Part shown: piece after piece, positions 3,012-13,641 of the stretch
Layout: every line of letters begins with the position of its first letter
Position numbering within the stretch: position 1 is the first letter of the stretch
Source of the DNA: a virus
Lineage: Duplodnaviria > Heunggongvirae > Uroviricota > Caudoviricetes
IMG/VR virus record: IMGVR_UViG_2563366928_000010
Reading direction: 5' to 3' (one strand)
Length of the DNA stretch: 21,036 nucleotides
The notes under the pieces: model-generated
Told to the model about the DNA's origin: nothing
The model's database searches: none
What the model saw: only the letters and a program-made list of their open reading frames with translations
Translations under genes and position numbers: made by a program

Positions 3012-3387
3012 GTCCATAAGAAAGCCCCTCCGGAGAGGGGCTGGAGAGTGGCGCTATGTGCCATTGCATGGTGCCGGGTGCCTCCCGGTGAGTTCAGCCC
3101 GGTGACACTGAACCCGCGTCATTCTCGTTTTGATAATCAGAGATTATACCATCACCAGTCGCCCCTCCGCTCAGGGGGATTCACCATGCCGTTCTCTTTT
3201 AACAAATTCGCCGCTAACAGGACAACATTCCGCTTTCTGAGTTGTGAGGAATTTAACACTTCACACCTGTGTGCATTTTCTACAGGCTGCTCCCAGCACC
3301 ACAATACATCGCAGGCAACAGAAGCCAAATGCCCCACCACAGAAAAAACATGCAATTATGATTATTGTTTACTGCAAAGATGTAGAA

Positions 3388-4094: not shown

Positions 4095-4171
4095 TGGACC
4101 GCCATCGAGGACTCGAACCCCGCGCAGCCAGCTTCGAAGGCTGGCGCTCTATCCCGATGAGCTAATGGCGG
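4095..4171 (-). tRNA. tRNA-Arg (anticodon UCG)
   Basis: 77 nt cloverleaf CCGCCAT..GCTC/GAGC D-stem..anticodon stem CCAGC/GCTGG with loop CTTCGAA..T-loop TTCGAGT..ATGGCGG-T-CCA, folded by hand. Confidence 0.75.
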
Positions 4172-4180
4172 TATGTGATA

Positions 4181-4256
4181 TGGTGGCCCTTGCTGGATTT
4201 GAACCAGCGACCTGGCGATTATGAGTCGCTCGCTCTCACCACTGAGCTAAAGGGCC
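4181..4256 (-). tRNA. tRNA with CAU anticodon, ileX/ileZ-like (tRNA-Ile2 lysidine type; would score as tRNA-Met in automated tools)
   Basis: GGCCCTTTAGCTCAGTGGTGAGAGCGAGCGACTCATAATCGCCAGGTCGCTGGTTCAAATCCAGCAAGGGCCACCA; closer to recalled E. coli ileX than to elongator tRNA-Met. Confidence 0.8.
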
Positions 4257-4296
4257 GGGCGCAGGATAATAACGGTACGTAACTAATTCTGCAATA

Positions 4297-4555
4297 TCAT
4301 CCGTTCTGACTGACTAAATCCTGAACTTCCCGAACCGTCTGCTCAAAACGTTCAGTCTCCAGCTCAACGCCTGTAGCACGACGGCCCAGTGCCAGTGCAG
4401 CTTTAACTGTTGAACCTGACCCCATAAAAAAATCTGCAACCAGGTCACCCGGACGACTGCTTGCGCTGATTATCTGCTGCAGCATTTCTGCCGGTTTTTC
4501 GCACGGATGTTTCCCGGGATAGAACTGCACCGGTTTATGCGTCCAGACATCGGTA
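4297..4555 (-). pseudogene. C-terminal remnant of a beta-class N6A/N4C DNA methyltransferase, ending at the IS1 boundary
   Basis: Translation ...HKPVQFYPGKHPCEKPAEMLQQIISASSRPGDLVADFFMGSGSTVKAALALGRRATGVELE carries motif-I-like FxGSGST and KP motif; reading frame upstream of IS1 hits a stop within about 50 codons and shows no catalytic DPPY region. Confidence 0.5.
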
Positions 4556-4570
4556 GGTAATGACTCCAAC

Positions 4571-5074
4571 TTATTGATAGTGTTTTATGTTCAGATAATG
4601 CCCGATGACTTTGTCATGCAGCTCCACCGATTTTGAGAACGACAGCAACTTCCGTCCCAGCCGTGCCAGGTGCTGCCTCAGATTCAGGTTATGCCGCTCA
4701 ATTCGCTGCGTATATCGCTTGCTGATTACGTGCAGCTTTCCCTTCAGGCGGGATTCATACAGCGGCCAGCCATCCGTCATCCATATCACCACGTCAAAGG
4801 GTGACAGCAGGCTCATAAGACGCCCCAGCGTCGCCATAGTGCGTTCACCGAATACGTGCGCAACAACCGTCTTCCGGAGACTGTCATACGCGTAAAACAG
4901 CCAGCGCTGGCGCGATTTAGCCCCGACATAGCCCCACTGTTCGTCCATTTCCGCGCAGACGATGACGTCACTGCCCGGCTGTATGCGCGAGGTTACCGAC
5001 TGCGGCCTGAGTTTTTTAAGTGACGTAAAATCGTGTTGAGGCCAACGCCCATAATGCGGGCAGTTGCCCGGCAT
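4571..5074 (-). CDS. insB: IS1 transposase InsB (expressed as InsAB' by frameshift)
   Basis: 167 aa ORF overlapping insA 3' end in the -1 frame, as in IS1. Confidence 0.85.
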
Positions 5075-5268
5075 CCAACGCCATTCATGGCCATATCAAT
5101 GATTTTCTGGTGCGTACCGGGTTGAGAAGCGGTGTAAGTGAACTGCAGTTGCCATGTTTTACGGCAGTGAGAGCAGAGATAGCGCTGATGTCCGGCGGTG
5201 CTTTTGCCGTTACGCACCACCCCGTCAGTAGCTGAACAGGAGGGACAGCTGATAGAAACAGAAGCCAC
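4993..5268 (-). CDS. insA: IS1 transposase InsA
   Basis: 91 aa [43 protein letters not shown]... Zn-finger InsA. Confidence 0.9.
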
Positions 5269-5408
5269 TGGAGCACCTCAAAAACACCATCATACACTAA
5301 ATCAGTAAGTTGGCAGCATCACCCATCGGTATACGGCACCTGCGCCGTCACGCCAAAATACCGCCGCAGTCGGCATTCACAACCACCAGCGCATTTAACG
5401 TTCAGGCA

Positions 5409-5433
5409 CAAAAAAACCCGCTCGACGGCGGGT
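5409..5433 (-). terminator. Putative intrinsic terminator (minus-strand sense)
   Basis: Hairpin ACCCGC-tcgacg-GCGGGT (5416-5433) preceded on plus strand by A7 (a U-run after the hairpin on the minus strand). Confidence 0.45.
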
Positions 5434-5479
5434 TTAAGCTGTGTGACGAAGTAACCACTCTTAACAGCATAACCAATTT

Positions 5480-5861
5480 TTTACGTACGTAAACTACTAA
5501 ATGATATTTGTGAGAATGCCACCGAGTGTTCAAAACACCACCACAAATACATAAGAAAACTTCAACAAATAACCAATGAATAATTTCCGATGTTATTTTT
5601 AGGTTGTTTAAATTAAGCCAAAAAATTATAGGGCGCTTATAAATAAGTGTCATTAATATAAATCAGCTAATAGATTTATTTTTGTTCAAACAAGAGCCAT
5701 GAATAGGATTAGATAGAAAAGGTTCAGATAAAAATAGAGATCTACGTCACAAATTAAATGAGAAACTAAAACTTACATCTTGAAATAATCACATTGATTA
5801 GATGAATATTTATCGCGCAGTGACATCATTTTTTTATAATAGTTCAAAAAAAGGGCGTACA
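5480..5861 (+). promoter_or_regulatory. AT-rich upstream regulatory region of the porin gene (exact promoter not resolved)
   Basis: About 380 bp strongly AT-rich non-coding DNA immediately upstream of the porin start, typical of enterobacterial porin control regions. Confidence 0.35.
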
Positions 5862-6944
5862 ATGAAAAAATTAACAGTGGCAATTTCTGCTGTAGCTGCA
5901 TCAGTACTGATGGCGATGTCTGCTCAGGCAGCTGAAATTTATAATAAAGACAGTAACAAGCTGGATCTATACGGGAAAGTTAATGCCAAGCACTACTTCT
6001 CCTCTAATGATGCAGATGATGGTGATACTACTTATGCTCGTCTTGGCTTCAAAGGTGAAACCCAAATCAACGATCAACTGACTGGTTTCGGTCAGTGGGA
6101 ATATGACTTCAAAGGCAACCGTGCTGAATCTCAAGGTTCTTCCAAAGACAAAACCCGTCTTGCATTTGCAGGCCTGAAATTTGGTGATTACGGCTCAATC
6201 GATTACGGTCGTAACTACGGTGTAGCATACGACATCGGTGCGTGGACTGACGTTCTGCCAGAATTCGGTGGTGATACCTGGACCCAGACAGATGTGTTCA
6301 TGACTGGCCGCACTACTGGTGTTGCAACTTATCGTAACAACGACTTCTTTGGTCTGGTCGATGGCCTGAACTTTGCTGCTCAGTATCAGGGTAAAAATGA
6401 CCGCACTGACGTAACTGAAGCCAATGGTGATGGTTTCGGTTTCTCCACTACTTATGAGTATGAAGGATTCGGCGTGGGTGCAACCTATGCTAAATCAGAT
6501 CGCACTGACGGTCAGGTCGCCTATGGTAAGAGCAAATTCAATGCCTCCGGCAAAAATGCGGAAGTATGGGCTGCAGGCCTGAAATATGATGCGAACAATA
6601 TCTATCTGGCTACCACATATTCTGAAACTCAGAATATGACCGTTTTTGGTAATAACCATATTGCAAACAAAGCACAAAACTTTGAAGCAGTAGCACAATA
6701 TCAGTTTGACTTCGGTCTGCGCCCATCTGTTGCTTACCTTCAGTCAAAAGGTAAAGACCTTGGTGTTCATGGTGACCGAGACTTAGTCAAGTATGTCGAT
6801 GTCGGTGCTACTTACTACTTTAATAAAAACATGTCCACTTTTGTTGATTACAAAATCAACTTAATTGACGATAGTAAGTTTACCAAAACAGCTGGTATTG
6901 ATACCGACGACATCGTCGCTGTAGGTCTGGTTTATCAGTTCTAA
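5862..6944 (+). CDS. nmpC: Outer-membrane general porin, NmpC/Lc/OmpC family (phage-borne)
   Basis: ATG at 5862 with AAGGG SD; signal peptide [23 protein letters not shown]; [16 protein letters not shown]... and C-terminal ...VGLVYQF beta-barrel terminus; matches recalled NmpC/Lc porins. Confidence 0.85.
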
Positions 6945-6954
6945 TCTGACTTAC

Positions 6955-9342: not shown

Positions 9343-11001
9343 TTACTGACTCAGATTGTTTATATTTTTCTGGAGTTGGTGCTTTGCCTGCATGATGCGC
9401 CAGGCCTCACTGCCTGCCGGTATCTCACGTCGTTCATCACGTTCCTGAGATAAATCAATCGTTGTTTGTGCGTTTTCAGTGACCTTCTGAACCCGCTGGT
9501 GGCCTTTGGCAAACCGGATCAGTTTGTGTCTGATGTAGTTATTTACCTCAGGGGTAATTTCCATCGGAAAGTTACTCAGTCCGTCAGGCCACTCACCGAA
9601 CTTTTCCCGGAAAGTGTGAGCACACCATCCGTCACTGACTGGACGCCCCAGCGAAGCACGCTGGCGCTGATAAAATTTGATCTGACTCCACCAGGACTGT
9701 TTCTCTGCCTTCGTCGACTGATGCTGATTTTTACCCAGCTTATTAAGTTTGCGGCTAGTGTCAGTATCAACGTCTTCACCTCGCAGCGGCTTGTGTCCAC
9801 ATTTCGGGCAAACATAGACGCCTGCTGGCTTCATGTAGTGGCATTGAGGGCATTCATGTGGCAGTTTTTCGGCCCGTTCCTCAACTGCCCGGCGCGCGCT
9901 TTCCTCCATGCCGTCAGACTTACCGGGAAGCTCGTCGTACTCGATTGAATCCGGATAACCCAAACGGTGCACGGTGCCGCTGTGATCGAAGATAAGGCAG
10001 GACTCTTTACCCGGTGCGGTGCGCAGCCCACGCCCGAGCGCCTGCAACCAGCGAATTTCGCTTTTTGTTGGCCTGGCGTAGATGATGCAACGAACGTCAC
10101 TATCGAATCCGGCTACCAGAACGCCCACACTAACGATGATTTTCGTTGCACCGGTTTCAAAGCGGTGAATGATGGTCTGGCGCTCATCTACCGGAGTGTC
10201 TGCGGTCATTACCTCAGCGTTAACACCCGCCAGGTTAAACTGGATTGTCAGGTAATTGGCGTGGGCTACGTTGACGCAGAAAGCGATGGTAGGTAGATCC
10301 CGACCATTCTCCAGCCAGTTCTGTACAATGTCGCCCACCAGCGTAGAGCCGCACATGATTTCAGCCAGCTGTGTTTCGTTGTAATCGCGGCCGTACTCAA
10401 GCGAAGATGTGGTTTTAACACCTTTCAGATCCGGCTTAGTTGGCGCGTAAAATTCGTATTTACTCAGATCGCCACGCTGGATTAACTCGCCGATGGTGGT
10501 CGGTTTAATCAGTCGGTCATAGTATTTGCCCAGGAACGGGGAAAACGGAGTACCCGACAGGCCAATCACCTTTACGCCTTTGCCGCGCAGACGTTCGATA
10601 TCCTTCAGGATGCGTTTTTTACGCAGGTGCGCTTCGTCGATAATCAGCAGATCGATATTTTCAGGAAAAACACGACGAATAAGCGTATCAGCGCTGGCAA
10701 TCTGAATTTTCCGGTCCGGATCGTAGTTCGGGTGATCCGCCCAGATATAACCGATTTCATCTCCAGGTAAACCATACTGCACGAACCGATTAGCCGTCTG
10801 ACCAATCAGGATGGTGTACGGAACACAGAACAGAGCGCGCATACCACGGCTGACAAAACCAGCAACTATGAAGGCTGCCAGACCCGTTTTACCGCTACCT
10901 GTTGGCGAATACACCATGAAGGTGTCGTTTGCCTTCCAGTAACGGCGCAACATGTTTAACGCCCGTTCCTGTGCAAAATTCGGCGTGATCGTCAGCTGCA
11001 T
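9343..11001 (-). CDS. Phage SF2 DEAH-box replicative helicase with C-terminal Zn ribbons
   Basis: Strong SD GGGGAGG + ATG at 11001; Walker A SPTGSGKT, Walker B LLIIDEAH, SGTP motif; C-terminal CPQCHY...CPKCGH. Confidence 0.85.
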   Translation of the reverse strand: MQLTITPNFAQERALNMLRRYWKANDTFMVYSPTGSGKTGLAAFIVAGFVSRGMRALFCVPYTILIGQTANRFVQYGLPGDEIGYIWADHPNYDPDRKIQIASADTLIRRVFPENIDLLIIDEAHLRKKRILKDIERLRGKGVKVIGLSGTPFSPFLGKYYDRLIKPTTIGELIQRGDLSKYEFYAPTKPDLKGVKTTSSLEYGRDYNETQLAEIMCGSTLVGDIVQNWLENGRDLPTIAFCVNVAHANYLTIQFNLAGVNAEVMTADTPVDERQTIIHRFETGATKIIVSVGVLVAGFDSDVRCIIYARPTKSEIRWLQALGRGLRTAPGKESCLIFDHSGTVHRLGYPDSIEYDELPGKSDGMEESARRAVEERAEKLPHECPQCHYMKPAGVYVCPKCGHKPLRGEDVDTDTSRKLNKLGKNQHQSTKAEKQSWWSQIKFYQRQRASLGRPVSDGWCAHTFREKFGEWPDGLSNFPMEITPEVNNYIRHKLIRFAKGHQRVQKVTENAQTTIDLSQERDERREIPAGSEAWRIMQAKHQLQKNINNLSQ

Positions 11002-11594
11002 TGTGCTGCCTCCCCATGGTTCAGCGGGAGGCGCCTGAAATGGTGACCGCGATGAGACTTTGTTCTTCCAGCAATAACAGCATAAACACTACCGTGATCA
11101 AACCCGGCACTAATTAGCGCCTTTTTCCCGCAAAAGGTTTGCTCTTCCCTGGTCGCAATATTTGTGGCGACAATCAGGCCCTTAAATTGTTTGTTGTTCG
11201 CCCCCTGAGAATTATTCAGCCCGGTGTGAATAGAATGCTGAATGTTTTCGCTATGGCTAACCCACTCCAGATTGGATGCATGGTTATTCAGCTTGTTGCC
11301 GTCCTTATGGTTCACTTCAGGGTGGTTGTAAGGGTTGCTGCAAAAAGCCAGCGCTACCAGACGGTGTACGGCAAAAGTTTGGCGATTACGTTTGTAGCTC
11401 AGGTTAACGGTTTTATATCCATCCCGGCGCACTCTTCCCTTGAGGAACACGCCACGAATTTGGCGAATAAAAAATTCCGATTCAGCAATTCGATTAACCC
11501 CACGGATGCGTCCCGCCGAGCTAACGAGGTAAGCATCACCATACGGAGCAACAGGAACCGGAAGCCATTTTTCACCATCAAAACTGTTAACCAT
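10992..11594 (-). CDS. HNH homing-type endonuclease (NUMOD4-like N-terminus + HNH_3-like core)
   Basis: Internal ATG at 11594 with GAGGTGA SD; GEKWLPVP...YLVSSAGRIRG and HRLVALAFCSNPYNHPEVNHKDGNKLNNHASNLEW motifs; 10 nt overlap with helicase start. Confidence 0.75.
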   Translation of the reverse strand: MVNSFDGEKWLPVPVAPYGDAYLVSSAGRIRGVNRIAESEFFIRQIRGVFLKGRVRRDGYKTVNLSYKRNRQTFAVHRLVALAFCSNPYNHPEVNHKDGNKLNNHASNLEWVSHSENIQHSIHTGLNNSQGANNKQFKGLIVATNIATREEQTFCGKKALISAGFDHGSVYAVIAGRTKSHRGHHFRRLPLNHGEAAQCS

Positions 11595-11612
11595 AAAATC
11601 ACCTCTGAACAT

Positions 11613-11852: not shown

Positions 11853-12146
11853 TCAGGAGCGCGATTGCGTTCCTGCCAGGGGCGGCTGAGTTGTATACCC
11901 CTGTAAAGCTCTGCCCTGATTTCTCACAAACAAGCGGAGCCTTGTGTTTGCTTCGTGCCTTGCTCTGTTCTCCTTGCGGAATGAAACAGGCTCAGCGTCA
12001 AAAGTGATTTCGTATACCTCCGCATATTTCAGGGCGACCTTCCGTCTCAGTGACGGAGGCAGCCCCTGTAACTGCTGCTGAATCCACTCTTCGTCTGCCT
12101 GGCAGTACCTAGATGGCATCTCTGTCTGAACGTAATTCTGGGACAT
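11853..12146 (-). CDS. Hypothetical early protein (97 aa) in the cII-equivalent position
   Basis: ATG at 12146 with strong SD GGAGAGGTGA 9 nt upstream; no family recognised. Confidence 0.5.
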   Translation of the reverse strand: MSQNYVQTEMPSRYCQADEEWIQQQLQGLPPSLRRKVALKYAEVYEITFDAEPVSFRKENRARHEANTRLRLFVRNQGRALQGYTTQPPLAGTQSRS

Positions 12147-12360
12147 ACAAGCCCTTCACCTCTCCCGTGCGCGCTAAGCTTGGATGTGTATATGGAATGT
12201 TCGGATCCAGATGGCAGAGAATGGCAACATCCTCCGGAACGCCCCGCGTTTTCCACTTTCCAACTCCCTGACTACCACGAGGCCTTCCTTTCTTTGGGAA
12301 CCTGCGGCCAATAGCGGCATTGGTCTTAAATTGAGTTTTTAATATTTCATAAAGGGTCAT
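12109..12360 (-). CDS. Hypothetical basic protein (83 aa) in the cro-equivalent position, divergent from the repressor
   Basis: ATG at 12360 with GAGG SD 7 nt upstream; basic (GRRFPKKGRPRGS); overlaps the next ORF by 38 nt in another frame; no clear HTH seen by eye. Confidence 0.4.
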   Translation of the reverse strand: MTLYEILKTQFKTNAAIGRRFPKKGRPRGSQGVGKWKTRGVPEDVAILCHLDPNIPYTHPSLARTGEVKGLYVPELRSDRDAI

Positions 12361-12471
12361 TCTTTAGCCTCACACCGGATACTCTGTTATCCAAGAATGT
12401 TAAACGCGAGAATCCAAAGTATCAAGAAATTCTGTTACTTTAGTATCAGCAGCCATGAAAGGAGAAGAAAA
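12361..12471. promoter_or_regulatory. Divergent promoter/operator region (OR-like) between cro-position gene and repressor
   Basis: Repeated (A/G)GTATC(A/C) motifs at 12377-12382 (inverted), 12418-12425, 12442-12449; candidate minus-strand promoter -35 TTGATA (complement of 12420-12425), 17 bp spacer, -10 TAACAT (complement of 12397-12402). Confidence 0.45.
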
Positions 12472-13128
12472 ATGAAATCTTTAGGTGAACGCCTCATCAA
12501 CGCACGACAAAAAGCTGGGTTAACGCAAGATGCGTTGGCTAAAAAAGCAGGGGTCACCAGAGTTGCAATCAGTAAAGCCGAGCAAGGCCTTACAAAAAGT
12601 TTCAACGGTGACACCCTTTTTAAAGTCGCAGCTGCACTGCAGTGTTCACCGCAGTGGCTTCAGAACGGAGATGAAAAAGATAAGCATTGGGAAAATAATG
12701 TTAAGAGCTGCCCACAGAGAGACACAGCACACTCTTACCCTGTAATTAACTGGGTTCAGGCAGGATTATTCGCAACTGCTGGTGATGACTACAACATGTA
12801 TGATCAGGATAATTGGAGGCATTCTGTAAAATACGCTGGTGAGAGGGGGTTCTGGCTGGAAGTGCACGGAGACTCAATGACTTCGCCCGTAGGAATAACA
12901 TTTCCTGAAGGAATGTCGATCCTTGTCAACCCAGATAAAGAAGTTTTTTCAGGGTGTTACGTCATCGCCAGAAAAAAATCTACCCATGAAGCAACATTCA
13001 AAAAATATATTTCTGAAATGGGAAAGGCGTTTCTAAAGCCCCTTAATCCACAATATCCAATCATAGAAATGGACAATGATTGCGAAATAGTAGGTGTTGT
13101 GGTTGATGCCAGGTGGGATATTTTCTGA
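12472..13128 (+). CDS. cI: CI-like prophage repressor (N-terminal HTH_XRE + C-terminal S24 LexA-like autopeptidase)
   Basis: AAAGGAG SD + ATG at 12472; HTH LGERLINARQKAGLTQDALAKKAGVTRVAISKAE; S24 catalytic motifs GDSM and downstream Lys (ATFKKY). Confidence 0.85.
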   Translation: MKSLGERLINARQKAGLTQDALAKKAGVTRVAISKAEQGLTKSFNGDTLFKVAAALQCSPQWLQNGDEKDKHWENNVKSCPQRDTAHSYPVINWVQAGLFATAGDDYNMYDQDNWRHSVKYAGERGFWLEVHGDSMTSPVGITFPEGMSILVNPDKEVFSGCYVIARKKSTHEATFKKYISEMGKAFLKPLNPQYPIIEMDNDCEIVGVVVDARWDIF

Positions 13129-13224
13129 TCAGACACAAAAAGAAACCAAAGTATCAAAAATCACTTGCCACACCTTGATACCTTAGTTACCATGAAACAA
13201 AGTTCGTAACTGAGGTATCATCTC
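13129..13224. promoter_or_regulatory. OL-like operator region downstream of repressor gene
   Basis: Same 12-mer CCAAAGTATCAA as in the OR region (13146-13157 vs 12414-12425), inverted copy TTGATACC 13175-13182, GGTATCAT 13214-13221. Confidence 0.45.
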
Positions 13225-13641
13225 ATGATCAATAAAGCTACAACTCTTGACTGTCTCGAAGAACTGAAAAACCTCGGCAGCCTCATTACACTAATAGCAA
13301 AAGCAACACCAGATGCTACGCTCTCTAGCGATATAGAGTCATGCGCAGGACTGGCATGGGATATGACAAATAGCATATCCAGAAAGCTATCGTCAGCAAT
13401 GCTTTTACAGAACAAAAATTCTGCAATCAACAACCGTCTTCGCACCCAACGCGAAGACTGCGGCTTAACAACAGCCGAACTCGCCAGACTGCTCGATCTC
13501 GATGAAGAAATTATCATCCAGTGGGAGAGCGGAGAGTACGAACCAACCATCAGCATGCTTATCCCTCTGGCTAATGTTCTTGGCTGTGATCCAATGTGGT
13601 TACTGACTGGTGCTTATAAACAAAATCAGGAGGAAGCATAA
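13225..13641 (+). CDS. HTH_XRE-domain protein (138 aa) with novel N-terminal half
   Basis: GAGGT SD 8 nt upstream; C-terminal RLRTQREDCGLTTAELARLLDLDEEIIIQWESGEYEPTISMLIPLANVLGCDPMWLLTG is a Cro/CI-type HTH. Confidence 0.7.
   Translation: MINKATTLDCLEELKNLGSLITLIAKATPDATLSSDIESCAGLAWDMTNSISRKLSSAMLLQNKNSAINNRLRTQREDCGLTTAELARLLDLDEEIIIQWESGEYEPTISMLIPLANVLGCDPMWLLTGAYKQNQEEA

Follow-up and report, generated by a model that had tools for sequence, protein, structure and literature searches.

What are the short repeats that flank the repressor gene of this prophage, and which protein reads them? The stretch of DNA analysed here (IMG/VR virus record IMGVR_UViG_2563366928_000010; 21,036 bp, hereafter the window) is an Escherichia coli lambdoid prophage adjoining mlrA, and the intergenic regions on both sides of its cI gene carry the same 12-mer. 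A first-pass annotation had read these repeats as operators on either side of a CI-like gene in a lambdoid immunity region, a reading with which the arrangement of the genes, the motif counts, and the conservation and covariation described below all agree. We consider it highly probable that the 12-mer and the neighbouring GTATC copies belong to six imperfect dyads of 14 bp, which would make up the right (OR; sites A, B and C) and left (OL; sites D, E and F) operator regions of a phiP27-type lambdoid prophage. Three genes frame these regions:

12472..13128, plus strand: cI repressor gene, 218 amino acids, with an N-terminal HTH_3 domain (Pfam, 1e-14) and a C-terminal Peptidase_S24 domain (Pfam, 1e-22)
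12109..12360, minus strand: cro-like gene, 83 amino acids, first gene of the operon of the rightward early promoter (PR), with a predicted Cro-like fold
13225..13641, plus strand: first gene of the operon of the leftward early promoter (PL), encoding a 138-amino acid protein with a C-terminal HTH_3 domain (Pfam) and beginning 5 bp after site F

The cI and cro-like genes are divergent, with a 111-bp intergenic region between them. CI is 45% identical to P22 C2 over its full length. Its N-terminal helix-turn-helix (HTH) domain matches solved structures of the C2 DNA-binding domain and has TRVAISKAE (region GVTRVAISKAE) as its recognition helix. In the C-terminal domain, which can be aligned with lambda cI (E 3e-33), QAG (96-98), GDSMT (133-137) and FKK (176-178) are retained; they correspond to the lambda cleavage site, catalytic Ser and catalytic Lys. 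Among phage records, more than 60% identity in the N-terminal domain was found only in phiP27 and the Stx group; identity to P22, ES18 and imm21-type repressors is about 38-39%.

The 12-mer CCAAAGTATCAA is present on the plus strand at 12414-12425 and 13146-13157 and at no other place in the window. With up to one mismatch it has two matches in the window, compared with 0.09 expected from dinucleotide shuffles. The first-pass annotation had tied its proposal to an excess of the motif over shuffled DNA and over other prophages; the two observed copies exceed the shuffles as just described, and the motif is missing from two other prophages (L043 and L044, discussed below). The extended 20-nucleotide contexts at 12409-12428 (AGAATCCAAAGTATCAAGAA) and 13141-13160 (AGAAACCAAAGTATCAAAAA) agree at 18 of 20 positions, as had been reported, and the further copies were located where they had been listed: GGATAC at 12377-12382 (the reverse complement of GTATCC), AGTATCAG at 12442-12449, TTGATACC at 13175-13182 and GGTATCAT at 13214-13221.

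Palindromes were then enumerated by pairing every 5-mer with its reverse complement at spacers of 0-10 bp and comparing the counts in the intergenic target (207 bp in two regions) with those in the rest of the window; shuffle controls were run alongside. GATAC-N4-GTATC was the unique best pattern, with three of three sites intergenic at up to one mismatch and 6 of 11 at up to two. The degenerate form GAWAC-N4-GTWTC has, at up to one mismatch, exactly six matches in 21,036 bp, all of them intergenic, compared with 2.15 expected over the whole window. The probability that six matches would all be placed by chance in these 207 of the 21,036 bp is about 1e-12. When the same script was applied to P22 as a positive control, it returned TTAAG-N4-CTTAA, located inside the OL1-3 and OR1-3 sites that the record annotates as protein_bind; the enumeration therefore finds operators established by experiment in the nearest relative that has been characterised. 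The functional unit is an imperfect dyad, (T)GAWAC-N4-GTWTC(A), of 14 bp or 16 bp with flanks. Each site in the window consists of one consensus half (GATAC/GTATC) and one variant half (GAATC, GAAAC, GTTAC, GTAAC or GATAA), with three sites between the cro-like gene and cI and three just 3' of cI:

12378..12391: site A (OR1-like), GATAC TCTG TTATC, 5 bp downstream of the PR -10 and covering the predicted PR start
12410..12423: site B (OR2-like), GAATC CAAA GTATC, containing the 12-mer at 12414-12425; its consensus half forms the PR -35, and it covers the PR spacer
12434..12447: site C (OR3-like), GTTAC TTTA GTATC, overlapping the -10 of the candidate maintenance promoter of cI (PRM)
13142..13155: site D (OL3-like position), GAAAC CAAA GTATC, upstream of the PL -35 and containing the 12-mer at 13146-13157; 0 mismatches to GAWAC-N4-GTWTC
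13177..13190: site E (main PL operator), GATAC CTTA GTTAC, in the PL spacer and overlapping the -10
13206..13219: site F (operator-like), GTAAC TGAG GTATC, at about +6 to +19 of PL and overlapping the ribosome-binding site of the next gene (GAGG, 13212-13215)

We place lower confidence in site F than in the other five sites. Sites B and D, about 730 bp apart, account for the 12-mer, which consists of their spacer, their consensus half and two flanking bases. The repeat described in the first-pass annotation is thus real, but the unit of recognition would be the 14-bp dyad (16 bp with flanks), of which each region has three. In relatives the OL copy is no longer a full 12-mer and reads CCATAG or CGATAG.

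Conservation was examined at two distances. A scan of genome contigs with CI as a source of sequences for footprinting returned proteins of only 28-56% identity (30-36% over most of CI), which were too distant, and closer loci were taken from IMG/VR and from the neighbours of cro homologues. The close set comprised 72 relatives from IMG/VR and earlier loci, in which CI is 94-100% identical (86-89% in a few), with 25 OR and 28 OL haplotypes. Variable columns made up 2 of 30 in the consensus half-sites, 7 of 30 in the variant half-sites, 9 of 24 in the spacers and 65 of 123 in the remaining intergenic DNA. The difference between half-sites and remaining intergenic columns is significant (Fisher p = 5e-7) and indicates purifying selection on the half-sites; part of the contrast is due to an indel-rich stretch directly after the cI stop codon. 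Positions 12414-12425 of site B are invariant across the 25 OR haplotypes. Across the 28 OL haplotypes the consensus half of site D is invariant and site E almost so, and site F is invariant in the E. coli clade save for one spacer base. In a Stx2a phage (L002) site A is the perfect palindrome GATACTTAAGTATC.

For the more distant set, Cro-like homologues of 60-80% identity were traced to their contigs, and every one of them was divergent from a repressor with HTH_3 and S24 domains. Loci from Klebsiella, Photorhabdus, Salmonella, Yersinia, Xenorhabdus, Citrobacter and Providencia rettgeri encode an identical GVTRVAISKAE; in the three of these seven loci for which CI was compared with that of the window, identity is 63-74%. 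De novo enumeration in their diverged intergenic DNA ranked GATAC-N4 or GAAAC-N4 patterns first, except in Salmonella, in which runs of T rank higher. The OR spacing is 32 bp from A to B and 24 bp from B to C in all eight genera, although two of the B or A sites in other genera fall outside the one-mismatch cutoff and were found at two mismatches. Site B reads (A/T)TCCAAAGTATCAA almost everywhere in the seven other genera. OL varies more: E, present in all genera, lies 34-35 bp from D, whose Salmonella copy is degenerate. A third OL site follows E by 24-29 bp in E. coli, Photorhabdus, Xenorhabdus and P. rettgeri only (24-26 bp in the latter three) and is absent from the Klebsiella, Yersinia, Citrobacter and Salmonella loci. 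When a position weight matrix was trained on sites from Klebsiella, Photorhabdus and Salmonella alone, the six window sites came out as the top six in 21 kb, with scores from 21.0 bits (site C) down to 9.1 bits; the next match scored 7.8.

Relatives with a different recognition helix were informative with regard to the protein that reads the sites. Two Providencia loci (L132 and L133) and a metagenomic locus (L138) encode GVSRVTISKIE, which differs from the window CI by T29S, A32T, A36I and Q38L, and at the corresponding places they carry (C)GAAAC-N4-GTTTC(G). The half-site therefore changes together with the CI recognition helix. This sister specificity, with the same layout, is found in L133 (Providencia, Logan DRR015741) and L138 (metagenome ERZ24774876), the second of which also has the NUMOD4/HNH and helicase backbone of the window. 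Conversely, phi467 (L043) and KC-Dl-1 (L044) share the backbone and have other cI/cro genes. Their intergenic regions contain no GATAC-N4-GTATC site and have other repeats instead, for example of the ATCAAGT and ATCGNTAAAC types, while the C-terminal HTH domain of the gene downstream of cI is nearly identical to that of the window. Since these prophages share the HTH domain without the sites, the motif travels with cI/cro and not with the neighbouring HTH protein.

The placement of the dyads relative to the early promoters is consistent with a role as operators. Three promoters are relevant:

12397..12425, minus strand: PR, directed toward cro, with -35 TTGATA (12425..12420), a 17-bp spacer and -10 TAACAT (12402..12397), from a promoter scan
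13165..13193, plus strand: PL, with -35 TTGCCA (13165-13170), a 17-bp spacer and -10 TACCAT (13188-13193), from a promoter scan
12433..12441, plus strand: candidate PRM, with the extended -10 TGtTACTTT and no recognisable -35, read from the sequence

The claim that one copy of the repeat overlaps the -35 of the promoter toward cro was borne out: the copy in question (12420-12425) coincides with the -35 hexamer, TTGATA, of the minus-strand promoter-like site TTGATA-17-TAACAT (12425..12397). The pattern TTGATA-17-TAnnnT is present at PR in all ten representative loci from eight genera, and TTGnnn-17-TACnnT is kept at PL in eight genera. PL would drive the plus-strand early-left operon; in a 99.9%-identical annotated genome all genes onward through xis to int lie on the plus strand. 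Upstream of cI the promoter scan found no sigma-70 match on the plus strand, as expected for a weak maintenance promoter. Loci of all eight genera have TG[T/C]TACTTT 32-44 nucleotides before the ATG of cI, and in the 25 OR haplotypes TGnTACTTT is invariant apart from the n position; it is the candidate extended -10 of PRM. It was preferred over TAGTAT (12441-12446), which was rejected because its second base (12442) is A, T, G or C in relatives. A leftward promoter from the OL copy of TTGATA was also rejected, since no -10 lies behind it, the scan returned none and the downstream DNA is variable. The cI leader has a Shine-Dalgarno sequence, AGGAG, at 12460-12464. Between the cI stop codon and PL (13129-13165) no intrinsic terminator was seen in the window or in E. 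coli relatives; the Klebsiella, Photorhabdus, Salmonella, Yersinia, Xenorhabdus, Citrobacter and Providencia relatives have a GC hairpin and a run of T at the 3' side of cI. PRM transcripts in lysogens may read through into the gene for the 138-amino acid protein.

We infer the working of the switch from the sequence, including CI binding, the order of site occupancy, cooperativity, activation of PRM and the transcription start sites, which are predicted at about 12390 (minus strand) for PR, about 12448 (plus strand) for PRM and about 13200 (plus strand) for PL. CI is a P22 C2-like HTH domain fused to an autopeptidase domain of the LexA/lambda-cI S24 type. CI dimers most likely bind the six dyads, each monomer reading one 5-bp half-site; an A/T-rich 4-bp spacer would set the centres of the two half-sites 9 bp from each other, as in P22. 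These dyads are most likely also bound by the Cro-like protein, probably with a different order of preference. Because B covers the PR -35 and spacer and A covers the PR start, CI at either site would block PR and turn off cro and the replication genes. At B, which lies over the place of the missing PRM -35, CI may also activate PRM. Site C overlaps the candidate extended -10 of PRM; at higher concentrations CI bound there would therefore shut PRM, resulting in negative autoregulation. At OL, CI at E, with D and F flanking it, would block PL and thereby early-left transcription toward xis and int. RecA-stimulated self-cleavage of CI at Ala97-Gly98 during the SOS response would lift repression.

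There is a small chance that the same dyads serve a switch with logic unlike that of lambda, in which cooperativity follows another scheme (pairing of B with C, or a hexamer-like assembly over A, B and C) or a third immunity-specific component acts together with CI and Cro. The features behind this reading are the fixed 32- and 24-bp spacing at OR, the near-invariance of site B over the PR -35 together with the missing PRM -35, and an N-terminal half of the 138-amino acid protein that travels with the module. The 32 bp between A and B are close to three helical turns, and the two sites would therefore lie on the same face of the DNA.

We find it quite improbable that the conserved blocks are promoter elements only (TTGATA of the PR -35, and TACnnT of the PL and PRM -10), with the dyads a by-product and the repressor binding elsewhere or recognising something else. 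The overlap that invites this explanation is extensive, as the PR -35 coincides with the consensus half of B, and the TAC of the PL and PRM -10 elements comes from the variant halves of E and C. However, conservation outside the promoter hexamers extends to sites A, D and F and to the outer half of each of B, C and E, L002 has site A as a perfect 14-bp palindrome, and D repeats the sequence of B at a place where no promoter is predicted on either strand. In addition, the enumeration gave no competing palindromic pattern, and the relatives with the other CI helix have a changed half-site at all sites together.

It is very improbable that the sites are bound by a regulator other than CI or Cro, such as the 138-amino acid HTH protein. 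That protein does have an HTH_3 domain, and its gene starts 5 bp past site F, but its HTH domain is nearly identical in phi467 and KC-Dl-1, which have different repeats and no GATAC-N4-GTATC. Moreover, Klebsiella, Photorhabdus and Salmonella keep the sites with no HTH-domain gene called beside cI. The protein is thus not required to account for the sites. An origin of the 12-mer identity as a functionless chance repeat or remnant of a local duplication, for which the A/T-rich intergenic DNA and the loss of the full OL 12-mer in relatives might speak, is effectively refuted by the two copies observed against 0.09 expected, the invariant half-site cores in 25-28 haplotypes, the retention of the OR copy in eight genera amid diverged DNA, and the ranking by the other-genus matrix together with the six-match excess in intergenic DNA.

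Three other interpretations of the sequences were discarded. The candidate IHF site TATCAAGAAATTC at site B (consensus WATCAANNNNTTR) has a 3' part that is not conserved in other genera. A possible LexA box, CTGTTACTTTAGTATCAG, has the form CTG-N12-CAG; a LexA box has CTG-N10-CAG. Models based on direct repeats of AGTATCA leave the partner halves GATAC, GTTAC and GTAAC and the constant 4-bp spacer unexplained.

The locus can be compared with characterised switches. It has the features of a lambdoid immunity region: a divergent repressor/cro pair, a repressor with HTH and S24 domains in which the Ala-Gly site and the Ser/Lys residues are present, dyads at OR over PR and the candidate PRM, and a second set at PL. 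The closest resemblance is to P22, with which it shares the gene order cro, OR, c2, OL/PL, about three sites per region over PR, PRM and PL, a C2-like HTH domain, and 5-bp half-sites with a 4-bp spacer (TTAAG-N4-CTTAA in P22). On these sequence features we assign the system to the P22 C2-like repressor/operator class, in the sense of a structural family. The differences concern specificity: the half-site is GATAC/GAAAC here and TTAAG in P22, helix 3 is TRVAISKAE here and SNVAISQWE in P22, and the equivalent of the OR1-OR2 spacing is 32 bp compared with about 23 bp, one helical turn longer, with the other spacing at 24 bp compared with about 25. A search for P22-type TTAAG-N4-CTTAA with up to two mismatches gave no match in either intergenic region; this pattern was taken from the annotated P22 record, and P22 operators are of the type ATTTAAG-N4-CTTAAAT. 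Because the half-site, helix 3 and the OR spacing differ and P22-type sites are missing, the immunity specificity should be unlike that of P22.

The likeness to lambda lies in the divergent PRM and PR at OR, in the position of PL 3' of cI and in the same orientation as cI, and in the C-terminal S24 domain with the Ala-Gly site, Ser and Lys kept. Unlike in lambda, the N-terminal domain is P22/434-like, there are no rex-like genes between cI and OL, and the cI leader contains a Shine-Dalgarno sequence; the lambda PRM transcript is leaderless. Lambda operators are 17 bp long with TATCACCGC-type half-sites, and those of 434 are 14 bp long, ACAA-N6-TTGT. Neither the 17-bp TATCACCGC-type nor the 14-bp ACAA-N6-TTGT pattern, both as consensus sequences, has a match in the window. 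The first-pass annotation had held that half-site sequence and spacing differ from those of the lambda, 434 and P22 operators. This is correct for the half-site sequence and the distance from site to site, but the geometry of the site itself (5-N4-5) is that of P22. Its suggestion of a distinct immunity specificity agrees with the absence of all three operator patterns from both intergenic regions.

phiP27 (AJ298298) and Stx1a/Stx2a-converting phages with LC5678xx accessions have the same immunity type, with a CI N-terminal domain 89-99% identical to that of the window and with the six sites shared. In those records the gene is labelled only 'putative lambda repressor' or '(phage) repressor protein CI', and they contain no operator features. 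The window prophage differs from these phages in that it is without stx in the region seen; in the annotation of its twin genome no stx gene appears at the position downstream of Q where Stx phages carry stx. Other Stx phages, namely 933W and H-19B, have lambdoid OR/OL regions controlling early promoters, and operator number varies by phage, with three OR and two OL sites in 933W and four OR sites in H-19B (PMC8065619). They have other repressors and other operator sequences; the window has three OR and two to three OL sites. In the literature searched, which did not cover the phiP27 genome paper, operator regions were described for 933W and H-19B and none for the phiP27 type. A full-text search for the operator strings returned only unrelated plant and animal papers.

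The cro-like open reading frame encodes 83 amino acids in the window and 69-75 in most relatives. Homology to phiP27 begins near 12153, and the 3' end of the cro-like gene overlaps the next open reading frame (11853-12146, minus strand, 97 amino acids, phrog_852) by 38 nucleotides, an arrangement suggestive of a recombination joint within the 3' end of cro. The 138-amino acid protein is a mosaic with a junction near 13439. Its N-terminal ~70 amino acids are found only in prophages of the same cI/cro type, and its C-terminal HTH_3 domain has 92-96% DNA identity in prophages with other cI genes (phi467, KC-Dl-1 and many Stx2a phages). The right-hand edge of the immunity module therefore falls within that gene.

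The 1.55 kb that was queried is 99.9% identical to NZ_OZ546925, where the gene order is Q (quuD), toprim, helicase, NUMOD4/HNH, two small open reading frames, LexA-family protein, HTH protein and onward to xis, int and mlrA. Over cro, cI and the gene after it, nucleotide identity is 95% to the Stx2e phage phiP27 and about 85% to several Stx1a/Stx2a-converting phages, and similar DNA was found in 326 of 5,426 complete E. coli genomes (~6%). Elsewhere in the window, a homing-endonuclease-like gene with NUMOD4 and HNH_3 domains (10992-11612, minus strand) is located between the small early open reading frames and the DEAD/DEAH helicase gene of the replication module. Located in the late region, downstream of Q (the antiterminator gene), are the small RNA STnc100 (3012-3218, minus strand; Rfam, 162 bits) and two tRNAs (4098-4171 and 4184-4256, both minus strand), annotated as tRNA-Arg and tRNA-Ile in the twin genome. 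At about 4300-6950 (4198-6845 in the annotation of the twin, L007) IS1A interrupts a DNA methyltransferase pseudogene, beside which, between the Q gene and the tRNAs, lies a prophage-borne ompC-like porin gene.

Judged from its sequence, the system is an ordinary lambdoid OR/OL switch of the phiP27 immunity type, with a distinct specificity within the P22 C2-like class and an operator sequence undescribed in the literature searched; it leaves the current understanding of phage switches unchanged. The analysis provides an operator map for the group: a consensus, (T)GAWAC-N4-GTWTC(A), with its six sites, and the locations of PR, PL and the candidate PRM. The group covers the Stx2e phage phiP27, several Stx1a/Stx2a-converting phages, prophages in about 6% of complete E. 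coli genomes and relatives in at least seven other enterobacterial genera. In Stx phages, operator number and strength are thought to affect spontaneous induction and hence toxin release (PMC8065619). The natural pairs of recognition helix and half-site (TRVAISKAE with GATAC, SRVTISKIE with GAAAC) offer a small case for studies of the specificity of C2-like repressors.

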